Shown here in pieces: positions 9,644 through 45,060 of a DNA stretch of 64,000 nucleotides. Each line of letters opens with the position of its first letter. The first letter of the stretch is position 1. The notes below the pieces were generated by a model. That model saw only the letters and a program-made list of their open reading frames with translations, ran no database searches and was not told the origin of the DNA. Source of the DNA: Verrucomicrobiia bacterium (lineage in GTDB: Bacteria > Chloroflexota > Dormibacteria > Aeolococcales > Bog-877); contig DATKRN010000022.1 in NCBI GenBank assembly GCA_035532155.1, positions 8,078 through 72,077 of the forward strand. Direction: 5' to 3'. The position numbers and the translations under genes are program-made.

Positions 9644-12418
9644 CTACGCCGTTGAGGTGGGCTGCGCCCCCAGCACCGCCTGCGCCGCCGCGAGTCGAGC
9701 CGCCGGCACCCGGAACGGGGAGCAGGAGACGTAATCCAGCCCGATCCGCTCGCAGAGCGTGATCGAGGCCGCGTCGCCGCCGTGCTCTCCGCAGATCCCG
9801 ATCTCGATGTCGGGCCGAGTCGCCCGCCCCTGTTCGACCGCGATCGCCATCAGCTGGCCCACGCCGTCCGGGTCGAGGTGCTCGAACGGATTGGCGGGTA
9901 GCACCCCGTCCCGCACGTACTGGCCGAGGAACTTGCCCTCCGCGTCGTCGCGCGAGACCCCATAGGTCATTTGGGTGAGGTCGTTGGTGCCGAAGGAGAA
10001 GAACTCGGCCGCCTCCGCGATCTGGCCGGCGGTGAGGGCGGCCCGGGGAACTTCGATCATGGTCCCGATCTTGATCGACAGGCGCGTGCTGTGCTCGCCG
10101 GCGACCGCCTGCAGGGTGGCCTCGATCACGGCCCGCGTGCGACGCAGCTCCTCGACGTGACCGACCAGCGGCACCATGATCTCCGGGACCGCGCGAACGC
10201 CGCGGCGACGGAGCTCGCAGGTGGCCTCCGCGATCGCCCGGGTCTGCATCTCGATGATCTCCGGGTAGAGCAGTCCCAGGCGACAGCCGCGCAGGCCCAG
10301 CATCGGATTCTGCTCGCGCAGATCCTCGACCGCCGCCAGCAGCTGCTCGGCGTGCGCCAGCTCGGCGCCGTGCTCGCCTCGCCCGCGGCGCTCCGAGACC
10401 TCGACCAAAAGGGCGTCGTGGTTGGGCAGGAACTCATGCAGCGGCGGGTCGATCAGGCGGATGATCACCGGCAGGCCCCGCATCGCCTCCAGGATCCCGA
10501 TGAAGTCCTGGCGCTGGAAGGGCAGCAGCTCGGCCAGGGCTTCGCGGCGTCCCTGGGGAGTGGCGGCCAGGATCATCGCCTGCACGTGCGGCAGCCGGTC
10601 CTGCTGCATGAACATGTGCTCGGTTCGGCACAGGCCCACACCCCGGGCGCCGAAGTCCCGGGCGCGCCGGGCGTCCTCGGGGGTGTCCGCGTTGGCGAAG
10701 ACGCCCAGCCGGCGGACCCGGTCGGCGAGACTCAGGAGCTGGCGCAGGTCACCCGAGACGGCCGGCTCCACCGTCGGCACCTCCCCCAGGATGACCCGAC
10801 CGGTGGTGCCGTCGAGGGTGAAGACCTCACCCTCGCGCAGGGTCACCCCTCCGGCGGTGAACTGGCGCCGGCGCAGGTCGACGGTCACCGACTCGGCGCC
10901 GGAGACACACGGCTTGCCCATCCCGCGCGCCACCACCGCCGCGTGCGAGGTGCGGCCGCCGCGAGCCGTGAGCACCCCCTCGGCGGCGATCATGCCGTGG
11001 ACGTCGTCGGGGTTGGTCTCCACCCGCACCAGGATGCACGGCGTCCCGGCCCGGGCCATCGCCTCGGCGCGGTCGGCGTCAAACACCGCCGCCCCGGTCG
11101 CCGCCCCCGGGGATGCCGCCAGGCCGGTGGCGAGCACCTGCACCGGGGCCCGGGGGTCGAGGCCGCGATGCAGCAGCTGGTCGATCTGGTCGGGCTCAAC
11201 CCGCAGCAGCGCCTCGTCGCGGGTGATGAGGCGCTCGCGCAGCATGTTCACCGCGATCCGCACCGCCGCCTGGGCGGTGCGCTTGGCGGTGCGCGTCTGG
11301 AGCATGTAGAGATGGCCGCGCTCGATCGTGAACTCCATGTCCTGCACGTCGCGGTAGTGGGCCTCCAGCCGCCGGGCGATCCGCTCGAACTCGCGGTAGA
11401 CCGCCGGCAGCTGCTGGCGCAGGGTCGCGATCGGCTGGGGCGTGCGGATTCCCGCCACCACATCCTCGCCCTGGGCGTTGAGCAGGTACTCGCCGAACAC
11501 ACCGCGCTCCCCGGTGGCGGGGTCGCGGGTGAAGGCGACGCCGGTGCCGGAGGTCTCCCCCATGTTGCCAAACACCATCATCTGGACATTGACCGCGGTG
11601 CCCAGGGTGTGGGGGATGTGGTTGTACTCCCGGTAGGCGATCGCGCGGCGCGTGTTCCAGGAGCGGAACACGGCCCCGATCGCGTGCTCCAGCTGGCGCA
11701 TCGGGTCGTCGGGGAACTCCTCCCCGGTGGCGCTGCGCACCAGCTGACGCATCCGCGCCACCAGCCGCTCCAGCGGGGCCACCCCGAGGTCGGCGTCGGT
11801 GGCGGCGCGGGCGCGTCGCTTGGCCTCGGCGAGCGCCTCCTCGAAGGGTTGCGGGTCCGCCCCCAGCACGATCTTGGCGAAGAGCTGGATGAAGCGACGG
11901 TAGGCGTCGAGCGCGAAGCGGCGGTCGCCGGTCCGCTGGGCGAGCCCCTCCAAGGTGGTGGGGGTGAGCCCGAGGTTCAGCACCGTGTCCATCATCCCGG
12001 GCATGGAGAACGCCGCCCCCGAGCGCACCGAGACCAGCAGCGGATCCGCGGGGTCGGCGAACTGGCGGCCGGCCGCCCGCTCCAGCCACCGCAGTCCCGC
12101 CTGGACCTCCTCCCAGAGCCCGGCGGGGAGCCGGTTGCCCGCCCCCAGGAAGGCCAGGCAGGCCTCGGTCGTGATCGTGAAGCCGGGCGGGACCGGCAGG
12201 CCGGCGCGGGTCATCTCCGCCACCCCGGCGCCCTTGCCTCCGAGCAGCGAACGCATCTCGCGCCCGCCCTCGTCGAACCGCCACACCCAGTGCCGGCCGG
12301 CGCGGGCGCGGGTCCGCCGGGGGGACCCGGCGCCGGCGGGCTCGCGGCTCGGACGGCGGGGACCGGGGCTCTCGGGTCGCTGGGTCGCGCGCTTGGGGGC
12401 CGCCTTGGGCGCCATCAC
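9644..12418 (-). CDS. ppdK: Pyruvate, phosphate dikinase
   Basis: This is the C-terminal ~924 aa of ORF 9644..12835. It carries WVWRFDEGGREMRSLLGGKGAGVAEM, a PEP-utilizing phosphohistidine region, and the TIM-barrel C-terminus ...GICGEHGGD.... The start is chosen at the ATG giving MAPKAAPK; the upstream 139 codons are Arg-rich read-through. Confidence 0.85.
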   Translation of the reverse strand: MMAPKAAPKRATQRPESPGPRRPSREPAGAGSPRRTRARAGRHWVWRFDEGGREMRSLLGGKGAGVAEMTRAGLPVPPGFTITTEACLAFLGAGNRLPAGLWEEVQAGLRWLERAAGRQFADPADPLLVSVRSGAAFSMPGMMDTVLNLGLTPTTLEGLAQRTGDRRFALDAYRRFIQLFAKIVLGADPQPFEEALAEAKRRARAATDADLGVAPLERLVARMRQLVRSATGEEFPDDPMRQLEHAIGAVFRSWNTRRAIAYREYNHIPHTLGTAVNVQMMVFGNMGETSGTGVAFTRDPATGERGVFGEYLLNAQGEDVVAGIRTPQPIATLRQQLPAVYREFERIARRLEAHYRDVQDMEFTIERGHLYMLQTRTAKRTAQAAVRIAVNMLRERLITRDEALLRVEPDQIDQLLHRGLDPRAPVQVLATGLAASPGAATGAAVFDADRAEAMARAGTPCILVRVETNPDDVHGMIAAEGVLTARGGRTSHAAVVARGMGKPCVSGAESVTVDLRRRQFTAGGVTLREGEVFTLDGTTGRVILGEVPTVEPAVSGDLRQLLSLADRVRRLGVFANADTPEDARRARDFGARGVGLCRTEHMFMQQDRLPHVQAMILAATPQGRREALAELLPFQRQDFIGILEAMRGLPVIIRLIDPPLHEFLPNHDALLVEVSERRGRGEHGAELAHAEQLLAAVEDLREQNPMLGLRGCRLGLLYPEIIEMQTRAIAEATCELRRRGVRAVPEIMVPLVGHVEELRRTRAVIEATLQAVAGEHSTRLSIKIGTMIEVPRAALTAGQIAEAAEFFSFGTNDLTQMTYGVSRDDAEGKFLGQYVRDGVLPANPFEHLDPDGVGQLMAIAVEQGRATRPDIEIGICGEHGGDAASITLCERIGLDYVSCSPFRVPAARLAAAQAVLGAQPTSTA

Positions 12419-21922: not shown

Positions 21923-22897
21923 TCAGGGAGAGGGCGCGGGCGCCCCGCCCCGGAGCACCGGGACCCGGACGGCGGGCGGACGACCGGCCAGGACCCCGAG
22001 CGTGATGGCCACGCCGCCAACCAGCTGGAGCGGGCGGATCGGCTCACCGATCAGCGCCGCCGCGAACACGATCCCGAGGAAGGGCTGGGTGTAGCCATAG
22101 ACGGAGGTCCGGGTGGGGCCGAGGCGCTCCAGTCCTGTGTAGTAGAGCCATCCGCTCAGGGTGACCGCTGCCAGCGCGCTGAACGCCAGCAGGCCGAGGA
22201 CACCTGAATCGAACCGGGCGGGCGCGACCACCGCCTCCACGATCCCGAGCGGGGCCAGGCCGATGCTGCCCACCAAGCTCACCATCGCCGCCAGCGCGAG
22301 CGGCGGATGGCGGGAGAGGAGGGGCGAGATGAGCAGGAGGTAGGCGGTCCAGCTGACGGGCAGTCCCAACCCCACCAGGTCGCCCGCGACCGAGGAGCGG
22401 CCGTGGGCTCCGGTGAGGACCACCAGCCCGAGGCCGGCGAGGCCCACCCCGAGCCCGGCCCAGACCCGAGTTGAGAGCCGCTGCCGGCGCCGCCAGGCGA
22501 GCCAGCCGGCGACCCCGAGCGGCGCGGTGCCGGCGAGCAGGGAGACGTTGTCCGCGCTGGTGAGGCGCAGGGCCCAGGTGAACGAGACCTGGTTGATGAC
22601 CACCCCGCAGCCGGCCGCCAGCGTCAGCTGGGCCAGCTCCCGGCCCCGCGGCCATCGCAGCGGGCCCTCGCGCCAGCGCGCGAGGGCCGCCAGCAGGCCG
22701 GCCCCCAGCACCCAGCGCAGCGCCGAGAACGTGAGCGGGCCGACGGGGCCGACGGCCAGCTTGGTGACGACGACGTTGGCGCTCCAGATGACGTAGGTGA
22801 CCAGTACCAGCCCGTCGCCCCAGCCGGCTCCCCCCGGCAGCGCGCGGCCCGGGAGCGGCAGCCGGCCCGCGCCTGCCTGCTGCCTCACCACGCCCAC
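21923..22897 (-). CDS. EamA/DMT superfamily transporter (10 TM)
   Basis: ORF hydropathy shows two EamA repeats. Confidence 0.7.
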   Translation of the reverse strand: MGVVRQQAGAGRLPLPGRALPGGAGWGDGLVLVTYVIWSANVVVTKLAVGPVGPLTFSALRWVLGAGLLAALARWREGPLRWPRGRELAQLTLAAGCGVVINQVSFTWALRLTSADNVSLLAGTAPLGVAGWLAWRRRQRLSTRVWAGLGVGLAGLGLVVLTGAHGRSSVAGDLVGLGLPVSWTAYLLLISPLLSRHPPLALAAMVSLVGSIGLAPLGIVEAVVAPARFDSGVLGLLAFSALAAVTLSGWLYYTGLERLGPTRTSVYGYTQPFLGIVFAAALIGEPIRPLQLVGGVAITLGVLAGRPPAVRVPVLRGGAPAPSP

Positions 22898-22958
22898 GGT
22901 AGCGGAGCCGCCCGGGAGACTGGGTGGGGGGCGCGACGGAGGCTGTTACGATCGGAGC

Positions 22959-25148
22959 ATGCTGCGCCTGCATGACACGCTGGCGCGCGGCGTACGCCCG
23001 GTGGAGCCGGCCGAGCCCGGCCGGCTTGGCCTCTACAGCTGTGGACCGACCGTGTATCGCTCCGCGCACATCGGCAACCTGCGCACCTACCTGCTCGCGG
23101 ACTGGATCAAGCGCACCGCCCGCGGCGCCGGCCTCGAGGTCCGTCACGTCAAGAACATCACCGATGTCGGCCACATGCGCCAGGAGCTGGCCGAGCGCGG
23201 CGGCGACAAGGTGATCGCGGCGGCGCTGGCCGCGGGCCGCACCCCGCAGGCGATCGCGCGGGCCTACGAGGACGAGTTCCACGCCGACGAGGCGGCCCTT
23301 CTGATCGGGCCCGCGGACGTCTTCCCCCGCGCCACCGAGCATGTGCCCGCGATGCTGGACCTGGTGGCGCGGCTGCTGGCCCGCGGGCTCGCCTACCAGG
23401 CTCAGGGCTCCGTCTACTTCGACACCAGCGCCTGGCCCGACTACGGTCGCCTCTCCGGCAACCTGGCCCCCGCGCAGCTGGCCGCGGCCGCCGGCGAGGC
23501 CGACCCGCTAAAGCGCCACCCCGGCGACTTCTCGCTCTGGCGGGCCGCCGAGCCCGGGCGCCGGCTGATGGTGTGGGAGAGTCCCTACGGGCCCGGGTTC
23601 CCGGGCTGGCACATCGAGTGCTCGGCGATGGCGATGGCGCACCTGGGCGAGACGTTCGACCTCCACACCGGCGGCGTCGACAACATCTTCCCCCACCACG
23701 AGGACGAGCGCGCCCAGAGCGAGGGCGCCACCGGGCGACCGTTCGCGCGCGCCTGGGTCCACGGCCAGCACCTACTCGCCGACGGCCTCAAGATGGCCAA
23801 GTCGACGGGCAACGTGTACACCCTCGCCGAGCTGCGCCGGCGCGGCTACGATCCGCTCGCCTTCCGATATCTGTGCGCCACCGTCCACTACCGGACCCCC
23901 CTCCACTTCACCCTGGCCACCCTGGCGGGCGCACAACGGGCGCTGCAGCGGCTGCGCGCCGTGGTCGCCGCGGGGCGGCGCGACGGCGCCGCCGACCGCG
24001 ATCCCGAGCCCCAGGTGGGGGCCCGGCTCCGCGCCGAGGTGCAGCGCCTGCTGGAGGACGACCTCGGGGTGCCGGCGGCGCTCGCCACCTGCTGGCGGCT
24101 GGTGCGCCACGACCCCGCCGGGCCCCCCGCCAAGTCGCTCGCCCTGCTCGGGGTCGAGCCGCTCCTCGGTCTCGGGCTGGACCAACCGGCGTCGCCCCCG
24201 GCACCGGACTCCGGCTGGCGCCGCGATCGGCTGGCCCGGGAGCGGGCCCGGGCGTCGGGCGGCTGGGAAGCGGCCGACCGCGCTCGTGTGCGGCTGGCTC
24301 GGGGTGGAGTCGTGCCCGAGGATGGGCCCACCGGGACCCGGTACCGCGCCGCCACCGCACTCGACCGCCGCCGCGGCCTGATCTCCAGCCCCGCGGAGGT
24401 CGAGGATGGTCGCGAACGACCCGATCGCGTCGAGGTCACGGTCAGCCTGGTCTGCAACGGCCCCGCCCCCGATGCGGTTCGCTGCGTGGAGAGCCTGCTG
24501 GCGCACCGCGGGCCCAGGGGCGTCGAGATCGTGGCGCTCGACAACGGCGCCGACCCCGACACCGGCGCCGCGCTGGACCGACTGGCGGCGGATCACCCCG
24601 CGGTGCTGGCTCTCCACGCCGACCACCGCCTGGGCGAGGGAGCGGCCCGCAACTGCACCCTGCGCGCGGCCACCGGGCGGGTGGTTCTGCTCGCCGACAC
24701 CGGGCTGGAGGCGGTCGGCGACTGCTTCACCCCGCTGCTGGCGGCGCTGGCCGACCCCGAGGTGGGAGCGGTCGGACGCTTCGGGGTGCGCTCCCGGGAC
24801 ATGCGCGAGTTCACCCTCTCGGATGCGGTCACGGTCGACGCCGTCGAGGGGTACTGCCTCGGGTTCGCCCGGCATCGGCTCCTCGAGATCGGCCTGCTCG
24901 ACGAGCGCTACCGGTTTTACCGACTGCTCGACTTCGATTGGTCGATGCGGCTGCGCGCCCACGGGCTGGAGAATCGGAGGATCCCCGACCTGCCGGTGCG
25001 AATGCACCTTCACCGGGGCTGGGAGGAGACCGAGCCGGAGGAGCGCGAGCGGCTGAGCCGAGCTAACTTTCGCCGCTTCTACGACCGCTGGCACCATCGT
25101 CAGGATCTGCTTATCAGCGCAACGGACCCGCCGCCGCGGTCGGGGTGA
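22959..25148 (+). CDS. cysS: Fusion protein: N-terminal cysteinyl-tRNA synthetase-like enzyme (catalytic and anticodon-binding-like regions), C-terminal GT2-family glycosyltransferase domain
   Basis: Single uninterrupted ORF (22797..25148). ATG at 22959 gives MLRLHDTLARG... Class I motifs are HIGN (HIGH-like) and KMAKS (KMSKS). Zn/Cys-binding residues are conserved (SCGPTVY, WHIECSAM, FPHHEDE). A CysRS-like C-terminus reads ...DDLGVPAALA...GW..DRLARERARASGGWEAADRARVRLARGGVVPEDGPTGTRY. It then continues in frame into a GT-A/GT2 domain (...VSLVCNGPAPD...VEIVALDNGADPDTG...RNCTLRAATGRVVLLADTG...DFDWSMRL...). Confidence 0.7.
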   Translation: MLRLHDTLARGVRPVEPAEPGRLGLYSCGPTVYRSAHIGNLRTYLLADWIKRTARGAGLEVRHVKNITDVGHMRQELAERGGDKVIAAALAAGRTPQAIARAYEDEFHADEAALLIGPADVFPRATEHVPAMLDLVARLLARGLAYQAQGSVYFDTSAWPDYGRLSGNLAPAQLAAAAGEADPLKRHPGDFSLWRAAEPGRRLMVWESPYGPGFPGWHIECSAMAMAHLGETFDLHTGGVDNIFPHHEDERAQSEGATGRPFARAWVHGQHLLADGLKMAKSTGNVYTLAELRRRGYDPLAFRYLCATVHYRTPLHFTLATLAGAQRALQRLRAVVAAGRRDGAADRDPEPQVGARLRAEVQRLLEDDLGVPAALATCWRLVRHDPAGPPAKSLALLGVEPLLGLGLDQPASPPAPDSGWRRDRLARERARASGGWEAADRARVRLARGGVVPEDGPTGTRYRAATALDRRRGLISSPAEVEDGRERPDRVEVTVSLVCNGPAPDAVRCVESLLAHRGPRGVEIVALDNGADPDTGAALDRLAADHPAVLALHADHRLGEGAARNCTLRAATGRVVLLADTGLEAVGDCFTPLLAALADPEVGAVGRFGVRSRDMREFTLSDAVTVDAVEGYCLGFARHRLLEIGLLDERYRFYRLLDFDWSMRLRAHGLENRRIPDLPVRMHLHRGWEETEPEERERLSRANFRRFYDRWHHRQDLLISATDPPPRSG

Positions 25149-30979: not shown

Positions 30980-32347
30980 CAGGGTGCTGAAAAACCAGCC
31001 ATCATCACCGGCCCCCGAGCGCTCTCGGATGTGAGAGTCTTGGTCCAGCGAGTTGGTCTGAGGAGGACAGGTGATGCGGGGACCGGTGATCTACCAGACG
31101 GCGATGCTGTCCGCCGTCACCACCGAGGATCTGGTACCCACGGACCACCCCATTCGCCGGATCAAGCCGGTGGTGGACGCCATCCTGGTCGACCTCGAGC
31201 CCACCTTCCGGCAGATGTACTCGGTCATCGGGCGGCCGAGCATCCCGCCCGAGCATCTGCTCAAGAGCACGGTGCTGATGGCGATGTACTCGGTGCGGAG
31301 CGAGCGCCAGTTCTGTGAGCGGCTCCAGTACGACATGCTGTTCCGCTGGTTTCTCGACCTGGGCATCGAAGACCGTGTCTTCGTCCCCACCACCTTCACC
31401 AAGAACCGCGAGCGGCTGCTCACCCACGAGGGGGCGGACACGTTCTTCCAGGCCTCGGTGGAGCAGGCGCGGCTGCGCGGCTACGTCTCGGACGAGCATT
31501 TCACCGCCGACGGCAGCCTGCTCGAGGCATGGGCCTCGGTCAAGAGCTTCACGCCCCGCACCGAGAGCGGCCACGGGTCGGCCGCCAGCGGTGGCGGCGC
31601 TGGGCGCGATCCCGAGGTGGACTTCCACGGGGAGAAGCGGAGCAACGCGACCCATCAGTCCACCACCGATCCCGAGGCCTTGCTGATGCGCAAGAGCAAG
31701 GCCCACGCGGCCAAGCTCTCCTACGCCGATCACGTCCTGATGGAGAACCGCTCCGGCCTCATCGTCGCGACGGAACTCACCCCGGCGACCGGGTACGCCG
31801 AGCGCGACACCGCGATCGCGCTGCTCACGCGGCTGCCCGGCGCGGGCCGGCAGCGCCGCACCCTCGGCGTCGACAAGGGGTATGACACCCGTGACTTCGT
31901 GAAGGGGTGCCGCGCGCTCAAGGTCACCCCTCACGTGGCCCAGAATGTGAGCGGGCGCCGCAGCGCCATCGACGACCGGACCACCCGCCATACGGGATAC
32001 GCGGTCAGCCAACGGATCCGCAAGCGGGTGGAGGAGATCTTCGGCTGGAAGAAGACCGTGGGCGGCTGCCGCAAGCTTCGCTTCGTGGGCCGGAAGCGCA
32101 ATCGCATCTGGACCCTGTTCAGCGGAGCGACGTTCAACCTCACCCGGATCGCCACCCTCGATCGTGACGCCGCCCTCCGGGCGGCATGAGGGCGCCGGGA
32201 GCGGCCGCGCGGAGCGAGCCGGGGGCTCCGGCGGGCGGTCCAGCCGCCACCCCGGAGGCCGCCACGGGGCGACGAGCGCCTCGGGCCGCTGACCGCGACC
32301 AGCTTGGCGGCCCAGACATCTCGTGAGGTCGCTATTTCAGCACCCTG
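30980..32347. mobile_element. IS5-family insertion sequence (~1.37 kb), intact
   Basis: Perfect 13-bp terminal inverted repeats CAGGGTGCTGAAA at 30980-30992 and (reverse complement) 32335-32347. One transposase ORF. Flanked by 4-bp direct repeats CTAA at 30976-30979 and 32348-32351. Confidence 0.7.
31071..32189 (+). CDS. IS5-family (DDE_Tnp_1) transposase
   Basis: ORF with an RBS GGAGGA upstream, a DDE-type core (...GVDKGYDTRDF...), and the C-terminal ...EEIFGWKKTVGGCRKLRFVGRKRN.... Confidence 0.85.
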   Translation: MMRGPVIYQTAMLSAVTTEDLVPTDHPIRRIKPVVDAILVDLEPTFRQMYSVIGRPSIPPEHLLKSTVLMAMYSVRSERQFCERLQYDMLFRWFLDLGIEDRVFVPTTFTKNRERLLTHEGADTFFQASVEQARLRGYVSDEHFTADGSLLEAWASVKSFTPRTESGHGSAASGGGAGRDPEVDFHGEKRSNATHQSTTDPEALLMRKSKAHAAKLSYADHVLMENRSGLIVATELTPATGYAERDTAIALLTRLPGAGRQRRTLGVDKGYDTRDFVKGCRALKVTPHVAQNVSGRRSAIDDRTTRHTGYAVSQRIRKRVEEIFGWKKTVGGCRKLRFVGRKRNRIWTLFSGATFNLTRIATLDRDAALRAA

Positions 32348-37912: not shown

Positions 37913-38599
37913 TTACGCGGGCAGCCGCCCCGAGGTCGCCCGCCGGCCCCGAGCGAGCGGGGAGCCCGGACACCAAGCCACCAGCAGGCAGGCGGAGCAG
38001 CGCGGCCGGTTGGCGATGCAGACCCGCCGACCGTGCTCGATCAGGCGCAGACCGACGCGGGTCCACTGCGAGCGGGGCAGCATCGCACACACCTGCTGCT
38101 CGATCGCCACCGGGTCGCGAGTGGCGACCACGCCGAGGAGATTGGTGAGTCGGATGACGTGGGTGTCGACCGCCAGCCCAGGAATGCCGAAGCCCACGCC
38201 GAGGACGACATTGGCCGTCTTGCGCCCGACCCCGGGCAGCCGGGTCAGCTCGGCCATGTGGCGGGGCACGGCACCCTGATGGCGCTGCTCCAGGGCGAGG
38301 CCGAGCGCCACCAGGGTGCGCGCCTTGACCCGAAAGAACCCCGTCGGCCGGATCAGCGCCTCCAGCTCGATCACATCCGCCCGGGCGAGGTCCCGGGCGG
38401 ACGGGAAGCGGGCGAACAGCCCGGGGGTGACCTGGTTCACCCGCTCGTCGGTGGTCTGGGCGGAGAGCACGGTCGCCACCAACAGCTGGAGGGGTCCGTC
38501 GTGGACCAGGGCACAGCGGCCGGGGTACGCGCTGGCGAGAGCGCGGCACGCGGCCCGGGCACGGCCCGCCGGCGTGCGCGGTCGAGACGCCGAGGCCAT
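37913..38599 (-). CDS. nth: Endonuclease III
   Basis: HhH-GPD motif (...LPGVGRKTANVVL...) and an Fe-S cluster C-x6-C-x2-C-x5-C (CIANRPRCSACLLVAWC). Confidence 0.85.
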   Translation of the reverse strand: MASASRPRTPAGRARAACRALASAYPGRCALVHDGPLQLLVATVLSAQTTDERVNQVTPGLFARFPSARDLARADVIELEALIRPTGFFRVKARTLVALGLALEQRHQGAVPRHMAELTRLPGVGRKTANVVLGVGFGIPGLAVDTHVIRLTNLLGVVATRDPVAIEQQVCAMLPRSQWTRVGLRLIEHGRRVCIANRPRCSACLLVAWCPGSPLARGRRATSGRLPA

Positions 38600-38688
38600 C
38601 GGGCCATCCTACCCACCCCGGGGGCTGCCCCGACCCCGCAGCGCCGGGCTCCCGAGGGGAGCACCCGGAGCCGGTATCCTCAGGGGCC

Positions 38689-39177
38689 ATGGGGCGCACA
38701 CGGCGCGCGCGCGCAGGGTGGATCCCGCGCCGGCTGCCCGCCCTGGCGGGTGCCCTCGGGCTGGCGCTGGCGCTCGCCGGGTGCGGGGCCTTCGGCTCGG
38801 TGGGAAACCCCACCGACGCCCATGTGCCGTTCGCGCCCGGCGCGGTGCCGCCTCACAGCGCGACCAACCTCGCCCTGCGCCCCCTCCCGGGGCCGCTGGC
38901 GCACCCCGACTACACGGTGATCATCTACCACAGCGTCAACACCGTCGGCGAGTTCGCCCCCGAGAACCTCACCGTCCCGGTCGGGTCGAGCGTCCAGTGG
39001 GTGTGGACCGATCACTACGATCTCCACAATGTGTGGTGGATCGATCAGACCCTCGTCAACTCCCCCACCCGGGGCTCCGGATTCCGCTGGGCGGTCCGGT
39101 TCACCCACCGCGGGGTGTACGAGTACTACTGCACGCTCCACCCGGGCATGATCGGCCGGGTGGTGGTCACCGGCTAG
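38689..39177 (+). CDS. Cupredoxin (plastocyanin/azurin-like type-1 copper) lipoprotein
   Basis: Lipobox LAGCG. Type-1 Cu ligand pattern ...H...C-x2-H-x4-M (YEYYCTLHPGMIGRVVV). Confidence 0.7.
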   Translation: MGRTRRARAGWIPRRLPALAGALGLALALAGCGAFGSVGNPTDAHVPFAPGAVPPHSATNLALRPLPGPLAHPDYTVIIYHSVNTVGEFAPENLTVPVGSSVQWVWTDHYDLHNVWWIDQTLVNSPTRGSGFRWAVRFTHRGVYEYYCTLHPGMIGRVVVTG

Positions 39178-39178
39178 G

Positions 39179-39670
39179 GTGGCGAGCTGGGTGCCGCGGC
39201 GGCGGGGGCTGGCCGTCGCCCTGATCCTGCTGGCGCTTCCCCTGGCCGCCTGCGCCCCCTCCCGAATCGCCGCCCGCGCGGCCCTGGAGCAGTTCCTCCA
39301 GGACGTCCACGCCCACGAGTCCGCCTACGCCTACACGCTGCTCGCCCCCGCCGCCGCTGCCCGCACCTCATTCGATGCGTTCAATCGGGCCGTCAGCGCC
39401 AGCCACGCCACCTTCCAGGTGGTCGGGGTGCGGAGCACCTCGGCCGGACGTGCCCGCGCAGTGGTCGTGGCCCACCTTCCCGGGGGCCAGCGGCGCCGCC
39501 TAGCGGTGACGATCATCGAGGTGGGCACCGGTGGAGACTGGATGGTGTCGGCCCCCTTCGCCACCTTGGGCGCGGTCGCAGTGCAGCTCCTCGGCTCCGC
39601 GTCCCCGTGCCCGCCGGCGGGCTGGACCGGCTATCCGCCCCGGCCCGCGCGGGCGGCCTGCGCACCCTAG
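39179..39670 (+). CDS. Hypothetical lipoprotein
   Basis: ORF beginning immediately after the cupredoxin stop. Lipobox LAAC. Confidence 0.45.
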   Translation: MASWVPRRRGLAVALILLALPLAACAPSRIAARAALEQFLQDVHAHESAYAYTLLAPAAAARTSFDAFNRAVSASHATFQVVGVRSTSAGRARAVVVAHLPGGQRRRLAVTIIEVGTGGDWMVSAPFATLGAVAVQLLGSASPCPPAGWTGYPPRPARAACAP

Positions 39671-39841
39671 CCACCGGACAACGGGAAGGGCCGGCGGTCC
39701 GCTCGGGCGCGCGCAGCGCCCGCATCGGGGTCCGGCGAGCCTGAGGCCTGCTCCCGTCGCTGGGGGCGGGCGCTCACCCCGACCCGATGCCCGCCGCTGG
39801 CGCCGGGGCGCCGGGCGGAAGCGCCGGGCGGCGGTGACCGG

Positions 39842-40276
39842 CTAGTCGAGGTCGGGCGCGTCCCCGGGCCAGCCCCCAGGTGGCGGCGAGGCGGGACCGG
39901 GCACACGCGCGAGGTCGGCCGGATCAAGCAGCAGCAGCAGCTGGTCGCCGACTCCAGCCCGGCGCAGTCGGTCCCACCCCGCCGCCTCGTCGGCGTCGAT
40001 CGTCAGCACCACGCTGCCGTGCTCCACTCGGCTGCTCCACCCAAGGGCTTCCAGCCGACGGACCACGTCGACGGCGAGGGTCAGGCGGTGCTGGAGCAGC
40101 TGCTTGACCGCCGCCAGCCGCACCGAGACGGGCATCCGGTCAGCGGTGGGGCGGTCGGCGAAGGCGAAGGAATGCATCTCGTAGTAGCGCACCAGCCACA
40201 CCGGCAGCGGCTCACGGCTGACCTCCTCCACGTCCTCGTCGAGGGTGCGCAGCGGGCACAGCCGGAGCTGCATCAC
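39842..40276 (-). CDS. Hypothetical soluble protein, last gene of the Rieske/cyt b/CydA-like operon
   Basis: ORF 39842..40276. Its GTG start overlaps the TGA of the upstream CydA-like gene (GTGA). Confidence 0.4.
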   Translation of the reverse strand: MMQLRLCPLRTLDEDVEEVSREPLPVWLVRYYEMHSFAFADRPTADRMPVSVRLAAVKQLLQHRLTLAVDVVRRLEALGWSSRVEHGSVVLTIDADEAAGWDRLRRAGVGDQLLLLLDPADLARVPGPASPPPGGWPGDAPDLD

Positions 40277-41645
40277 TCGCCACCGAGGATGAGGTTGGCT
40301 CCGGTGGCCGCCCCCCCCTGGGCGGGTCCGGTGGTGGCGGGGGGCACGAAGTTCTGCTGCTGGTTGATGAGCATGTGGTTGGTGATGAGGAAGGGGCCCC
40401 GGGCATCCTCACGGATGTAGCCCATGAGGGCCATGATCAGGCTCACCGCCACCCCCATGGTGATGAGCGCCAGCGCCTGGCTGCGGCGTGCCTCCCCCCA
40501 GCGCAGGTGGCCCCGGCTCACCTCGCGCAGGAAGACCGTCACCGCGGTGATGCTGACGAAGGTGAACGCCACCAGGGCGGTGAGCTTCCAGGGGATCATC
40601 GCCCCGAAGGGGATGAGCAGTCCGCCGTTCCAGATCGGCACGTTGGCGTTGGCGGCGAAGACCTGCTCGTAGCTCCAGGCCAGTGACGAGGGTGTGGCCC
40701 CCAGCAGCCAGGCCCCCATCGAGAGCACGGCGCAGAGCGCCAGGGTGGGAGAGCGGATCCCGCTGCTGCGCACGCGCCGCCAGAAGAAGAAGATCCCGGC
40801 GGTGAGGATCAGTCCCAGCAGGAACATCTGGAACAGGAAGGCGACGCTGAGACCGCCCAGCATCATGTCGTACCAGCTGGCGTAGGCGTGGAGCTGGATC
40901 TCCTTGGCGTACTCCCAGCCGACCAGCGGCTGGAGCGCGGTGAACGCGATCGCGATGACCGCTCCGATGGCCCCCATCCAATCCGCATAGCTGCGCTGCT
41001 GCGGGGTCCGCGCGCGCAGCACCCGCCACCCTGCCACGATCGCGATCAAGGCTCCGGTGAAGGCCACGTTGCCGATCAGGCGATGCACCTCCAGGGGGAT
41101 CAGGGTGGGGTTGAGCAGGATCAGGGGGAGGTTGAAGGCGGGCCGCGGCGTGAGCATGTAGGAGGCCACGAAGTTGATCGCCAGCATCTGCACGAAGAGG
41201 TCGACCGCGAGCACCAGCCCGAGGCCGATCCGCAGGGGACGGACGCGGCCCAGCCGGTCCCACCCGACGTAGAGGGTGTAGAGCGCCATGATCTCGAGAG
41301 CGAACGCGCCCGCCTCGATCACCAGCGGCCAGAACATGATCCGCAGCAGCTTCACCCAGAAGTGGCTCCACAGACCGGTGAACAGGATCATCATCGCGAA
41401 GATCGCCAGCGCCGCCCCGATCGAGAAGACCACCGCCATCGTCTTGACCATCCCTCGGGCGAAGCGGGTCTGACGCTCGTCCTTGCGGACCATGCCGAGG
41501 AAATCGAAGAGGGTCATCACGAGCGCGCCCCCCTGCTGGAAGGCGGCGAACTGGATGTGCGCCAGCATCAGCAGGCCAACCAGCGCGGTGGCCACCCCGG
41601 TGGAGATGCCCACCGGGACGAGATGCGGGGCAAGGGCGAGGGTCA
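40273..41645 (-). CDS. Cytochrome bd ubiquinol oxidase subunit I-like (CydA-like) polytopic membrane protein
   Basis: This is the C-terminal ~457 aa of the chimeric ORF 40273..43071. ...FWPLVIEAGAFALEIMALYTLYVGWDRLGRV... matches the CydA ...PLAIEGLMAFFLE...FFFGWDRLGKV block. ...ALMGYIREDARGPFLI... resembles the periplasmic ...AEYGRQPWAI motif. A GTG start ~16 nt downstream of the cyt b stop follows GGAGG. No cydB is adjacent. Confidence 0.6.
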
Positions 41646-41663
41646 GGGGCACGGAGCCTCCGA

Positions 41664-42878
41664 TCAGAGGTTGAAGAGACGGTTGACGGCGAGCAGCGCC
41701 TCGAAGATGAGGAACAGGAGCGTGAACAGGGCGGGCACCATCAGCTGGGGCCGCTTCCAGGGCTCCCGATCCGGAGAGCGGTCGAGGAAGGGGACCAGGA
41801 TCAGCAGCGTGCTGGCCAGCCCGGGGATGACGAAGACCCCGACCGGGATCATCCACGCCTGCGGGAACTGCACCAACAGCTGGTCCAGCGGCAGGAAGAA
41901 CCACTCCGGGGTGGGCACGTAGGTGAGCGAGGCGGGGTTGGCGGGCGCCTCCAGCGGCGAGCCGACCACCACCGCCATCACGAAGATGACCAGCACCAGC
42001 AAAAAGGAGATGATCGCGTCCTTGCCCACCTGGGAGGGGAAGAACTCGTCGAGGTCGTCGGGGACCGCATAGCCGGGGTCGGAGGGGACAGCCGGGTAGG
42101 GGGGCTCCGCCCGCAGCACGCGCTCCGCTCGCTCCCGCTCCGACTCGCCGGGGTCGTTGCGGTAGTTCACCCACGAGCCATGCTCGCCGTGGCGGCGAAG
42201 CAGGTAGAGGTGGACCACGATCAGCGGAACCAAGAGCGCGGGGAGCAGCCAGATGTGGATGGCAAAGGTGCGGGTCAGGGTCACCGGACCGACCTGATTG
42301 CCCCCCCGCCAGATCTCCTGCAGCCAGTGCCCCAGCCCGGGGACGTAACTCAGCACATGGGTGGTGACCACCGTGGTCCAATAGGCGGCCTGGTCCCAGG
42401 GCAGCATCGCCCCCGTGATCCCGAGAGCGAGCACCAGCAGGAAGAGCATGACTCCGGTGATCCAGTTGAGCTCGCGCGGCTTCTTGTACGAGCCGCTGAC
42501 GAAGGTGCGCACCATGTGCAGGCCGATCACCAGCAACAGAACGTAGGCGCCCCACAGGTGCATCCCCCGCACGATGGCGCCGAACTCGTCGTGGTGGGCC
42601 AGGTAGTTGAGGCTCTCCCAGGCCTCGGTGGTGGAGGGCACATAGCTCCACAGCAAGAACATGCCGGTCACGATCTGGAGCGCGATGATGATGAGGGTGG
42701 CGCTGCCCAGGGTGTAGGCCCAGGCGCCCCGTCGCGGCACCGCCTCGTAGAGGCCCTTGTAGGCGAGGTCGGTGATCCCCATCCGCTCGTCCACCCACCG
42801 ATAGGCGATCGCCAGCGGCCGGGATATCGGATGGGTCAGCCGCCCCGCCAGCTTGGATCGGGTCGACTCGCGGGCCAT
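41664..42878 (-). CDS. qcrB: Cytochrome b (b6-like N-terminal four-helix core plus a subunit-IV-like C-terminus), quinol:acceptor reductase subunit
   Basis: ORF with ...YTLGSATLIIIALQIVTGMFLLWSYVP...MHLWGAYVLLLVIGLHMVRTF...PEWFFLP.... Confidence 0.85.
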   Translation of the reverse strand: MARESTRSKLAGRLTHPISRPLAIAYRWVDERMGITDLAYKGLYEAVPRRGAWAYTLGSATLIIIALQIVTGMFLLWSYVPSTTEAWESLNYLAHHDEFGAIVRGMHLWGAYVLLLVIGLHMVRTFVSGSYKKPRELNWITGVMLFLLVLALGITGAMLPWDQAAYWTTVVTTHVLSYVPGLGHWLQEIWRGGNQVGPVTLTRTFAIHIWLLPALLVPLIVVHLYLLRRHGEHGSWVNYRNDPGESERERAERVLRAEPPYPAVPSDPGYAVPDDLDEFFPSQVGKDAIISFLLVLVIFVMAVVVGSPLEAPANPASLTYVPTPEWFFLPLDQLLVQFPQAWMIPVGVFVIPGLASTLLILVPFLDRSPDREPWKRPQLMVPALFTLLFLIFEALLAVNRLFNL

Positions 42879-42881
42879 CCT

Positions 42882-43373
42882 CTAGGCCTCGGTCAGCCGG
42901 TCGCGCACGTACAGGGTCTCCCCCGCCAGCTTGTGCTGGTAGCGGAAGAGGGGCTTGGGTGGTGGGCCGCCGACGTTGGTGCCGGTGATCGAGTAGAAGC
43001 CGCCGTGGCAGGGGCAGAGGAACTGCTGCAGGTCGATGTCCCAGTGCACATCGCACTGCATGTGGGTGCACACGTTGGAGAGCGAGAGGACCTGGAGCTG
43101 ATTGCCGACGTTGAGCTTGACGACGTACACGATCCTGGCCACCGGGGGCACCTTCCAGGCCTGGGTGGTGGGCATCTGCACCACGTAGGCGGTGGGCAGC
43201 CCTACCGGCACCTGGCTGATGTCACCCACCCGCACCCAGGGGTGGGAGCGCCGGGTGAAGATCGGCTGCAGCACCTCGCCGACGATGGGCGCCGCGATCA
43301 GCAGGGTGATGCCCGCGCCGGCGAGGTTGGTCGCCAGCACCATGAAGCGGCGGCGCGAGATCCGGGTGCCCAC
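42882..43373 (-). CDS. qcrA: Rieske [2Fe-2S] iron-sulfur protein with a Tat signal
   Basis: N-terminal twin-arginine RRRFM. Rieske boxes CTHMQC and CPCHGG. Confidence 0.85.
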   Translation of the reverse strand: MGTRISRRRFMVLATNLAGAGITLLIAAPIVGEVLQPIFTRRSHPWVRVGDISQVPVGLPTAYVVQMPTTQAWKVPPVARIVYVVKLNVGNQLQVLSLSNVCTHMQCDVHWDIDLQQFLCPCHGGFYSITGTNVGGPPPKPLFRYQHKLAGETLYVRDRLTEA

Positions 43374-43374
43374 C

Positions 43375-43608
43375 TCAGGCGCCTCCCTGCCCGATCGGGA
43401 CCACCACCAGCGCGATCAGCATCCCCAGCACGAACACCAAGCTGAGCACGGTCACCGACCCCGCCGCGGTCGCGGCGAGGTGGTCGCCGGCGCGCCAGAG
43501 GACCCGGAGCCGGCGCAGCACCAGCCAGGCTCCGACCAGCAGCACCACGAACAGCGACGTGATCACGATCCCGAGGAACCAGGCCGTCTCGAAGTCCTGG
43601 TAGTTCAA
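43375..43608 (-). CDS. Small two-TM membrane protein (77 aa) within the respiratory operon
   Basis: ORF 43375..43608. Sits 1 nt upstream of the Rieske start. Confidence 0.4.
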   Translation of the reverse strand: MNYQDFETAWFLGIVITSLFVVLLVGAWLVLRRLRVLWRAGDHLAATAAGSVTVLSLVFVLGMLIALVVVPIGQGGA

Positions 43609-43633
43609 CGCGATGCCCCCACGCCGCAGCGGA

Positions 43634-44902
43634 TCACGGCAGCACGCCGCGCGGGGGGTCGAAGTTCTGGGTCGCGGTGTGCAGGCTCATGAGGCAGCTG
43701 CTCTGGCCGCTGGGGGCGTCGATGGCGCAGGGCAGCTTGACGTTCTCTTTGATCACCCCCATGTACAGGCTGAGCGCGAGCGCCGCCACCGCCACCACCG
43801 GGATCAGGCGGCCGGCCGGCCCCGGCAGCCCCAGGGTGGCGGCCCCGCGCCGGTGCTCGGCAATGAAGCGCGCCAGATGCACCGCGGTGGCGGCGAAGGC
43901 CACCAGCAGCAGCGAATAGCGGAGCGCCACCAGCCCGCTCGGGATCACCACCGCGGGCATGGCGGCGCCCGCCATGCCGAGCAGGGCCACCACCGTGAGC
44001 CCGGCCCCCGCCCGGCTGCCGCGGGCGGCGGGGCTGTGCTGCCAGAAGACCAGGTTCGCCCCCACCACCACCACTGCCAGCAGGCCCACCTGCCCCACCA
44101 GCATCACCCCCGAGCCGCCGGTCGTGAGGTTGGCGAAGGCCGGTCCCGAGCTCTGCTGGAGGGTGGCGGCGAGCAGGAAGCCGGTCACCGGCTGCGCCAC
44201 GAGGAAGGTCGCGCCGATTGCGAAGTTGACCCGGGCCGCCCAGCGCTGGAAGGCCACCTCGGCGGGGTCGGTGGCACGCCCCAGCCGCCAGACCGCGATG
44301 GCGGCGAGCAGGAGGGCCGGCCACGAGAGGTTGGCGGCGGCGTAGTGGAGCAGCAGCCAGGGGTAGCTGGGGCTGAAGGCGGCCGAGCTGGCGTGAACCG
44401 ATCCCGGGGTGAGAGCGAAGCTGTCCAGCTCCACGATGGTGAACAAGAAGATGTACTGCACGGCCGCGAAGGCGAAGCCGATGGCGAGGTGGAGCCGGGG
44501 GGAGATCTGGTCCCAGCGGTAGACGTACAGCAGCATCAGCGGGATGCCGATAAAGAAGCTGCCGAAGGCGATCGTCAGCGGCAGCAGCAGCAGGTTCAGC
44601 AACGTCCCGATCAAGTTCCCGTAGATCCCGGTGAGGAGCACCACCGCGAAGACCGCCCAGGTGGCGCCGAAGCTGTAGAGGTACGCGGTCGCATGCGCCA
44701 GGCTGCGGGCGTAGCGGAGGTGGCGGGGGTCACCCCCGCGCCGACGCCCGGCCAGTTCCATGAAGGGCGCCAGCGCGCTGGCGCCGAGGATGAAGCCAAC
44801 CAGGGCGATGTGGATCAGAAAGGTGGCGCCGATGGCGGCGGCGGCCCCGACCGACCCCAGCGGCAGATGGGGGACCGGGGTCGGGAATGCGGAGAGGGGC
44901 AC
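43634..44902 (-). CDS. Second CydA-like (cytochrome bd subunit I-like) polytopic membrane protein
   Basis: ORF 43634..45040. ...LYVYRWDQISPRLHL... is the GWDRLG-equivalent. ...LYMGVIKENVKLPCAI... is the GRQPW-equivalent. The N-terminal helix contains His (FLIHIALVGF). The start is uncertain: GTG at 44902 with a GAGG RBS is preferred over 45040, which would crowd the divergent holA start. Confidence 0.5.
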   Translation of the reverse strand: MPLSAFPTPVPHLPLGSVGAAAAIGATFLIHIALVGFILGASALAPFMELAGRRRGGDPRHLRYARSLAHATAYLYSFGATWAVFAVVLLTGIYGNLIGTLLNLLLLPLTIAFGSFFIGIPLMLLYVYRWDQISPRLHLAIGFAFAAVQYIFLFTIVELDSFALTPGSVHASSAAFSPSYPWLLLHYAAANLSWPALLLAAIAVWRLGRATDPAEVAFQRWAARVNFAIGATFLVAQPVTGFLLAATLQQSSGPAFANLTTGGSGVMLVGQVGLLAVVVVGANLVFWQHSPAARGSRAGAGLTVVALLGMAGAAMPAVVIPSGLVALRYSLLLVAFAATAVHLARFIAEHRRGAATLGLPGPAGRLIPVVAVAALALSLYMGVIKENVKLPCAIDAPSGQSSCLMSLHTATQNFDPPRGVLP

Positions 44903-45060
44903 GCCGTACCTCACTGGCGGGGCGGGCGGCGGGAGCACGAGCCGACGCGGCGCAGGGGCCCGGGGCGCCCCGAGCCAGACACATGCTGACGGGGACCCCC
45001 CGTGGCTCGCAAGCCCGACCGCTGCTGGGGGCGGCGCCACCAGCGTCCATACTGGAGCCG

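Follow-up and report, generated by a model that had tools for sequence, protein, structure and literature searches.

We have analysed a stretch of 64,000 nucleotides of contig DATKRN010000022.1 (called the window throughout), and have found that a gene at 38689-39177 on its plus strand encodes, with high confidence, a tethered type-1 (blue) copper electron carrier, i.e., a cupredoxin lipoprotein. Near this gene lies an operon on the minus strand (39842-45040) for a Rieske iron-sulfur protein, a cytochrome b and two CydA-like proteins of the bd family. It is plausible, though our confidence stays a little below an even chance, that the cupredoxin is coupled to the Rieske/cytochrome b complex of this operon. 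The parts of the gene and its product are as follows (aa, amino acids).

38689-39177, plus strand: type-1 (blue) copper cupredoxin lipoprotein, 162 aa, recognised by Pfam PF00127, copper ligands, lipobox and fold
Residues 1-32: signal peptide with lipobox
Residues 33-45: conserved tether motif
Residues 46-74: variable linker
Residues ~75-162: cupredoxin domain
39025-39027, plus strand: codon of copper ligand His113 (HNVWW motif), read from the DNA like the three below
39130-39132, plus strand: codon of copper ligand Cys148
39139-39141, plus strand: codon of copper ligand His151
39148-39150, plus strand: codon of copper ligand Met154

The protein matches Pfam PF00127 (Copper-bind; plastocyanin/azurin family) over residues 88-160 with 34.4 bits, against a cutoff of 21.2. 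Its orthologues form 27 clusters at 56-100% identity, and every cluster with an informative source label comes from Candidatus Dormibacteria. H113, C148, H151 and M154 are invariant across 21 aligned sequences. Since the window has a G+C content of ~74% and long spurious open reading frames (ORFs) are frequent in it, many of them overlapping the cupredoxin region on both strands, the frame at 38689-39177 could be suspected to be a chance product of 75% G+C DNA and not a gene. This is refuted by the Pfam match, the 27 orthologue clusters with their invariant ligands, the coding-type G+C at third codon positions (0.85) and the confident fold, and it retains practically no probability.

The DNA at 39130-39150 reads TGC-ACG-CTC-CAC-CCG-GGC-ATG, that is, C148-T-L-H151-P-G-M154, which is a C-x2-H-x2-M loop of amicyanin length. 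The first-pass annotation of this DNA had given the loop as C-x2-H-x4-M, the plastocyanin type, and has to be corrected in this point. Its description of a lipobox-anchored type-1 copper protein holds well, as the lipobox LAGC is conserved, the four ligands are invariant and the PF00127 score is above the cutoff, with the lipidation itself being a prediction. Structure modelling, which the same annotation had suggested as a check, agrees. The AlphaFold2 (AF2) model, calculated from the 21-sequence alignment, has a mean predicted local distance difference test score (pLDDT) of 76; residues 60-162 form a block with pLDDT 76-96 (mostly >82), and the tether is disordered. The model shows eight strands arranged as a Greek-key beta-sandwich, a confident cupredoxin fold that matches the cupredoxins in the PDB. 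In the Foldseek search against the PDB, the best match is 5fc9, with 38% identity in 96 aligned columns and a target-normalised TM-score of 0.81; amicyanins, plastocyanins and pseudoazurins come next, and the probability is 1.00 for 5fc9, the amicyanins and the plastocyanins. The closest solved structure, 5fc9, is the purple cupredoxin of Nitrosopumilus maritimus. That protein has no axial Met and an open coordination site, whereas the window cupredoxin keeps the invariant Met154.

We have also compared the cupredoxin with the named families. The best NCBIfam match is amicyanin TIGR02657 (an equivalog model) with 37.8 bits against a cutoff of 110.2, followed by the halocyanin domain TIGR03102 (33.6 against 93.8) and the plastocyanin equivalog TIGR02656 (27.8 against 87.85). 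As all these scores are far under their cutoffs, membership in the amicyanin, plastocyanin or halocyanin equivalogs is rejected, and the protein should be regarded as a generic type-1 cupredoxin of a clade-specific subfamily outside the named families. It resembles amicyanin in the short C-x2-H-x2-M loop, in the best NCBIfam match and in being among the best structural matches, but amicyanin is soluble and periplasmic while the window protein is predicted to be lipid-anchored. The scanned parts of the window gave no methylamine dehydrogenase (mau) gene. Overall, the cupredoxin does not fall into a family with a known unrelated role; the first-pass annotation had named membership in such a family as a finding that would speak against a link to the operon.

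The export signal is of the bacterial lipoprotein type. The lipobox L29-A30-G31-C32 follows a basic n-region and a hydrophobic h-region (residues 18-36), conforms to the pattern [LVI][ASTVI][GAS]-C, from which lipidation is predicted, and has its Cys32 codon at 38782-38784. The lipobox Cys is kept in 18 of 18 aligned Dormibacteria-type sequences. Twin-arginine export has been considered and rejected, because the RR pair is not kept among the orthologues. The tether motif (residues 33-45, 38785-38823) reads C-x-x-F-G-x-V-G-x-P-T-x-A-H across the Dormibacteria orthologues; it is not of low complexity and includes a conserved His.

The cupredoxin gene is followed directly by a second lipoprotein gene in the same direction, which we call lipo2.

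39179-39670, plus strand: lipo2, ORF for a 163-aa lipoprotein with lipobox LAAC (Cys25)

The first-pass annotation had given 38689-39670 as the interval of the cupredoxin lipoprotein. This stands for 38689-39177, but 39179-39670 is a separate lipoprotein gene without a Pfam family. The GTG start of lipo2 lies 1 nt past the cupredoxin stop, and the two genes are probably co-transcribed. Since lipo2 adjoins the cupredoxin at every locus that carries the latter, the two should be seen as a two-gene unit. The mature lipo2 domain of ~110 residues is conserved, with the lipobox Cys, H46, E114, W121, P126 and F127 invariant. Pfam gave no family even at E<=10, and the profile search found no PDB relative. 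The only NCBIfam match, to the actinobacterial WKL family lipoprotein model, is weak (26 bits, where the cutoff is 105), the homologue search returned 2 proteins, and the AF2 model from 3 sequences has a pLDDT of 48, too poor for use. In addition, lipo2 has a C-terminal extension (39590-39670) with two Cys (…SPCPPAGWTGYPP…AACAP), which the closest relatives (P0082, L010) share and the other orthologues lack.

Given such an obligate partner of unassigned role, one may ask whether the cupredoxin/lipo2 pair handles copper (surface buffering, delivery or sensing) rather than electrons. The relatives L003 (10941-12596) and L004 carry a luciferase-like oxidoreductase gene and a CopD-family gene after the pair, on the same strand and before the operon, which would fit such a role. 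However, CopD is confined to this L003/L004 lineage among the loci with annotated gene content, lipo2 shows no Met- or His-rich copper motif, and a complete and invariant His/Cys/His/Met site, set in a canonical cupredoxin fold, is what marks an electron-transfer protein. We therefore consider copper handling very unlikely.

The operon and the other features around the pair are listed here, the operon genes in the order of transcription.

37913-38599, minus strand: endonuclease III (nth), divergent neighbour of the cupredoxin
39753-39807, unstranded: imperfect inverted repeat with 19-nt arms, 79% complementary, inside the 171-bp convergent intergenic region
43634-45040, minus strand: CydA-like 'b', longest ORF 468 aa, Pfam PF01654 at 44 bits
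43375-43608, minus strand: 77-aa protein with two transmembrane (TM) helices, conserved between the CydA-like 'b' and Rieske genes, with the same 77-aa gene in L001, L003 and L005
42882-43373, minus strand: Rieske [2Fe-2S] protein, 163 aa, twin-arginine leader SRRRF, motifs CTHMQC...CPCH, Pfam PF00355, NCBIfam b6f-type Rieske at 54 bits
41664-42878, minus strand: cytochrome b, 404 aa, b6-like N-terminal part fused to a subunit-IV-like C-terminal part, Pfam PF00033 and PF13631, NCBIfam cytochrome b6 at 212 bits
40273-41652, minus strand: CydA-like 'a', ~459 aa, ~10 TM helices, Pfam PF01654 at 59 bits, confined to the N-terminal half
39842-40276, minus strand: 144-aa cytoplasmic protein, last gene of the operon, its GTG start overlapping the cydA-like stop by 4 nt

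With the cupredoxin pair on the plus strand at the lower coordinates and the operon on the minus strand (45040 to 39842), both units run towards each other and are thus convergent, tail to tail. That is, the divergent orientation claimed earlier does not apply to the operon, and the divergent neighbour of the cupredoxin is nth. The claimed distance of ~1.1 kb is right: the cupredoxin stop (39177) and the cydA-like stop (40273) are 1,096 bp apart. Between the lipo2 stop (39670) and the stop of the last operon gene (39842) there are 171 bp, and the inverted repeat in this region may, judged from its sequence, serve as a bidirectional terminator. A consensus promoter/terminator scan of 38400-40400 gave no sites, including none at the 39753-39807 repeat.

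The operon itself lacks a cytochrome c or f, as had been stated in the first-pass annotation; the CxxCH motif is found in none of the six operon products. The cytochrome b has a PEWF motif at its Qo site and contains no Cys. CydA-like 'a' retains the helix-1 His (H32), the proton-channel Glu residues E113 and E120, and H190, and gave no match to the quinol-binding Q-loop; its profile aligns to the Geobacillus CydA 5doq_A at residues 12-168. 'a' and 'b' are paralogues with 26% identity, and 'b' has Ala and Gly where 'a' has E113 and E120. The true start of 'b' is probably near 44902, to judge from its orthologues, which are 422 aa long. The 144-aa protein matches no family in Pfam or NCBIfam and lacks predicted TM helices, and its gene follows cydA2 in nearly all loci of the closer relatives.

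These features resemble the OR-N family of cytochrome bd-like proteins. In the part of its description that concerns us (Murali, Gennis and Hemp 2021), the family has an 'a/b' pattern, i.e., a pair of CydA homologues without the quinol-binding loop and with the proton-channel Glu in 'a' and not in 'b', and its operons encode their own electron-donor module, which is proposed as the electron source of the CydA-like pair. The window operon shows a paralogue pair, the Glu in 'a' only, profile matches to the N-terminal helices only, and Rieske and cytochrome b genes between the CydA-like genes. By these sequence features it matches the OR-N bd-like family, at the level of the family as a whole rather than of a particular subfamily such as N5a/b. 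In a relative, L008 (2054-10459), a distant CydA-like pair (28-31% identity) stands directly behind a module like alternative complex III (ACIII), which consists of a multihaem c protein, a molybdopterin subunit, an FeS subunit, NrfD, and ActD fused to a cytochrome c. Thus, the same oxidase-like pair occurs together with either of two modules for quinol oxidation. In the literature, we have come across no biochemical work on a complex of the window type, with Rieske/cytochrome b and two CydA-like proteins.

If the cupredoxin and the operon work together, the pathway could run as follows. The cupredoxin probably leaves the cytoplasm, receives a lipid at Cys32 and stays attached to the outer side of the cytoplasmic membrane through a tether of ~40 residues, where it would act as a tethered one-electron carrier in the manner of halocyanin, sulfocyanin and auracyanin. 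Its electron donor would most likely be the Rieske iron-sulfur protein of the adjacent Rieske/cytochrome b6-like module, which has no c-type cytochrome. From the cupredoxin, the electrons would go on to a terminal oxidase, which could be the operon's own CydA-like pair or a heme-copper oxidase with its genes elsewhere. Dormibacteraeota are described as monoderm aerobes with cytochrome-c-type terminal oxidases throughout the phylum, so that a surface-anchored one-electron carrier is needed, and an oxidase requiring a one-electron donor is probably encoded elsewhere in the genome.

Copper proteins are known to mediate the transfer from Rieske proteins to oxidases in archaea (PMC4122944, PMC3062577). 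The best functional analogy is sulfocyanin (SoxE) of the Sulfolobus SoxM supercomplex, a membrane-anchored blue copper carrier between a Rieske/cytochrome b module without cytochrome c and a terminal oxidase (PMC3062577, PMC4122944). However, SoxE is encoded and assembled within its supercomplex and has a heme-copper oxidase as partner, while the window cupredoxin gene is convergent to and outside an operon that carries CydA-like (bd-family) proteins. The sulfocyanin-type arrangement, with the carrier gene in the Rieske/cytochrome b operon, is found only in one relative, L078, and not in the window. Halocyanin of haloarchaea, a lipobox-anchored small blue copper protein that replaces cytochrome c as oxidase substrate, shares with the window cupredoxin the lipobox anchor and the weak TIGR03102 match, but the window protein is bacterial, scores far under the halocyanin cutoff and has no conserved twin-arginine motif. 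Auracyanin of Chloroflexus, the acceptor of ACIII in Chloroflexi (PMC5826079), is likewise a membrane-tethered blue copper carrier, from a phylum sister to Dormibacteria, that accepts electrons from a quinol-oxidising complex. Its partner is ACIII and not a Rieske/cytochrome b complex, and its structure (1qhq) is only at Foldseek rank 42 with a TM-score of 0.48 normalised to the target, a much weaker match than amicyanin and plastocyanin. The first-pass annotation had drawn the analogy to plastocyanin and the b6f complex. This is apt for the cupredoxin fold, the one-electron carrier role and the b6f-like cytochrome b and Rieske protein next door, but it is loose, because plastocyanin has a C-x2-H-x4-M loop in place of the x2 loop and takes its electrons from cytochrome f, while the operon has no cytochrome f or c. 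Sulfocyanin and halocyanin are closer.

That the cupredoxin is the electron carrier of the operon, as the first-pass annotation had proposed, is supported by several observations. Besides the missing CxxCH motif, no other redox partner is at hand: our search of the ORFs called and scanned in the window gave neither a heme-copper oxidase nor a c-type cytochrome or nitrite reductase, and the operon is the sole other redox machinery among them. All the larger coding-like ORFs scanned are housekeeping besides the operon (pyruvate phosphate dikinase, amino-acid decarboxylase, tRNA synthetases, transporters, PPK1 and others).

The conservation of the neighbourhood, which that annotation had also suggested as a check, points in both directions. 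The synteny sample comprised the contexts of the cupredoxin orthologues and 80 loci with the downstream CydA-like gene, out of 149 relatives found; all six-frame ORFs of these loci were searched with the window proteins, the cupredoxin profile and the ligand-motif pattern. The close clade consists of 39 loci with 61-88% identity to the window CydA-like protein. The core operon and holA are present here wherever the contig extends to them, and the cupredoxin/lipo2/nth block lies downstream of the operon in 25 of the 39 loci, at the following distances between operon and cupredoxin.

Less than 2 kb: 20 loci
2-5 kb: 2 loci
5-10 kb: 3 loci

One further locus (L040) has lipo2 alone at 8.7 kb, followed by the contig end, and nine are too short to judge. 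As a side observation, contigs with the Dormibacteria-type block (L009, L034, L037, L040, L053, L064, L070 and the sources of P0001 and P0003) stand in public records under the labels Verrucomicrobiae, Micrarchaeia archaeon, Nanopelagicaceae, Acidiferrales, Angelobacter, Binatus and Eisenbacteria; these labels are probably taxonomic mislabels of genome bins.

The distant clade consists of 42 loci at ~40% identity, and in 28 of these the sequence continues for at least 5 kb downstream. The five-gene core is complete in this clade, with an AI-2E transporter, CvpA-trypsin, DnaJ/GrpE/HrcA, DsbA and an upstream ABC-2 transporter as neighbours. The last of these is a pair (ATPase and permease) directly upstream of the first CydA-like gene and on the same strand in 22-26 of the 42 loci (e.g., L007, 5313-6790), and it is absent in the close clade. 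The CxxCH motifs near the distant operons were examined as candidate cytochromes and rejected for at least the recurrent ones (an ORF of ~375 aa with the motif at about residue 145), which are the DnaJ zinc finger.

One distant locus is of special value for the coupling. L078, a Dormibacteraceae genome bin, has a 126-aa lipoprotein cupredoxin inside the operon (11275-11655, plus strand), with a Pfam Copper-bind score of 39.5 bits, the loop CEYHQGM and 33% identity to the window cupredoxin. Its ATG (11275) overlaps the TGA (11276-11278) of the last CydA-like gene 'a' in the form ATGA, and by this arrangement of the sequence we read it as operonic and translationally coupled to CydA-like 'a'. 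It is the sole case among the 42 distant-clade loci. When metagenomes were scanned with the L078 cupredoxin, three weak loci came up, L089 (a fragment), L090 (49.6% GC, membrane-fused) and L091, none of them with the operon.

On the other side, the neighbourhood may reflect inherited gene order only, an explanation that we also take as well possible, somewhat below an even chance. The operon would then encode a quinol:O2 oxidoreductase complete in itself, with the mobile Rieske head passing electrons straight to a haem of the CydA-like pair, and the cupredoxin would serve another pathway, e.g., take electrons from a different donor to a heme-copper oxidase, or supply a copper nitrite reductase whose gene lies elsewhere. 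A whole group of observations weighs for this explanation and against the coupling. Because of their convergent orientation, the cupredoxin pair and the operon cannot be co-transcribed and must form separate transcripts. In the close clade, a block of ~20 kb (recO, CNNM, prs, glmU, enoyl-CoA hydratase, nth, holA and others) is syntenic in the same genomes; since the whole housekeeping block is equally syntenic, the adjacency is mostly inherited gene order and carries little functional information. Four close-clade loci (L012, L016, L017, L021) have no cupredoxin in the 8-10 kb downstream of the operon. Moreover, about one third of the evaluable close-clade genomes carry unrelated inserts of 2 to >10 kb between the two units (2.3-9 kb in L014, L038, L030, L022 and L020), with genes for ClpP, a LuxR response regulator, a histidine kinase, Fer4/GltD-like proteins, a luciferase-like oxidoreductase and CopD, which are unrelated to respiration. 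All the inserts sit at the junction of lipo2 and the 144-aa gene, where the region is least stable, and leave the cupredoxin next to nth in every case. Outside the orthologues, the nearest cupredoxin, P0029 (locus L092), lies among non-respiratory genes, with an extracytoplasmic function (ECF) sigma factor and a Na/Ca exchanger adjacent.

The distant clade and the nature of the operon add to this. In 41 of the 42 distant-clade operons, neither a cupredoxin nor a c-type cytochrome was found within 10 kb, so the complex needs no operon-linked carrier. From the precedents of the OR-N family, whose operons are described with their own donors, and of the ACIII-like module in L008, the Rieske/cytochrome b proteins can be read as the built-in quinol-oxidising donor of the CydA-like pair, for which an extra carrier is not strictly required. 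The O2-site His and proton-channel Glu residues retained by CydA-like 'a' are in line with a self-contained enzyme. However, inherited order has difficulty with two facts: the in-operon cupredoxin of L078 with its ATGA overlap is hard to explain without a functional link in that lineage at least, and the scanned ORFs of the window offer no alternative partner.

Returning to the coupling of cupredoxin and Rieske/cytochrome b complex, we have considered which acceptor would follow. Met-ligated type-1 copper sites are usually higher in potential than the entry haem of bd oxidases, which would make the cupredoxin a poor donor to the CydA-like pair. If the coupling exists, we infer that onward donation to a heme-copper oxidase is likelier than donation to the bd-like pair. 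A stronger proposal takes the cupredoxin as a dedicated shuttle from the Rieske protein to the CydA-like pair, i.e., as part of a copper-dependent, cytochrome-c-free 'Rieske/b : cupredoxin : bd-like' quinol oxidase supercomplex. L078 would then represent the version with the carrier gene inside the operon, and the window lineage the version with the carrier and its lipoprotein partner outside. We regard this proposal as doubtful, and we know of no bd-family oxidase that is fed by a blue copper protein. What is known is the operon type in outline and tethered blue copper carriers as a kind; on the evidence for the window, a copper-fed Rieske/b : bd-like complex is a hypothesis, which L078 makes testable.

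The question matters since Dormibacteria are abundant uncultured bacteria of soil and permafrost, whose respiratory chain is known from gene lists only. Actually, the literature that we have found on their respiration holds general statements (monoderm, cytochrome c oxidases, cbb3 or bd), with no mention of this operon or cupredoxin. The OR-N bd-like family, which was described in 2021, raises the question of how a Rieske protein passes on its electrons when there is no cytochrome c1 or f, and the tethered blue copper protein is a concrete and testable candidate for this exit step or for the connection to a heme-copper oxidase. If the coupling is true, the archaeal sulfocyanin/halocyanin solution would be extended to a bacterial phylum, and with the bd-like pair as acceptor it would be a new type of electron donor for the bd superfamily. 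If it is false, the protein is one more clade-specific cupredoxin.

Two further observations concern other parts of the window. An insertion sequence (IS)-type transposase gene (DUF772 and DDE domain) lies at 31071-32189 (plus strand) between the CNNM and prs genes; its patch has a G+C of 0.68 compared with ~0.75, CNNM and prs adjoin each other in the syntenic loci L001, L003 and L005, and it looks like a recent insertion. In addition, the gene at 22797-25148 (plus strand) encodes a protein of 783 aa that joins a cysteinyl-tRNA-synthetase-like catalytic domain to a family-2 glycosyltransferase domain. This fusion is kept in the relative L005 (1-980), and it may be an enzyme of low-molecular-weight-thiol biosynthesis rather than a tRNA synthetase.

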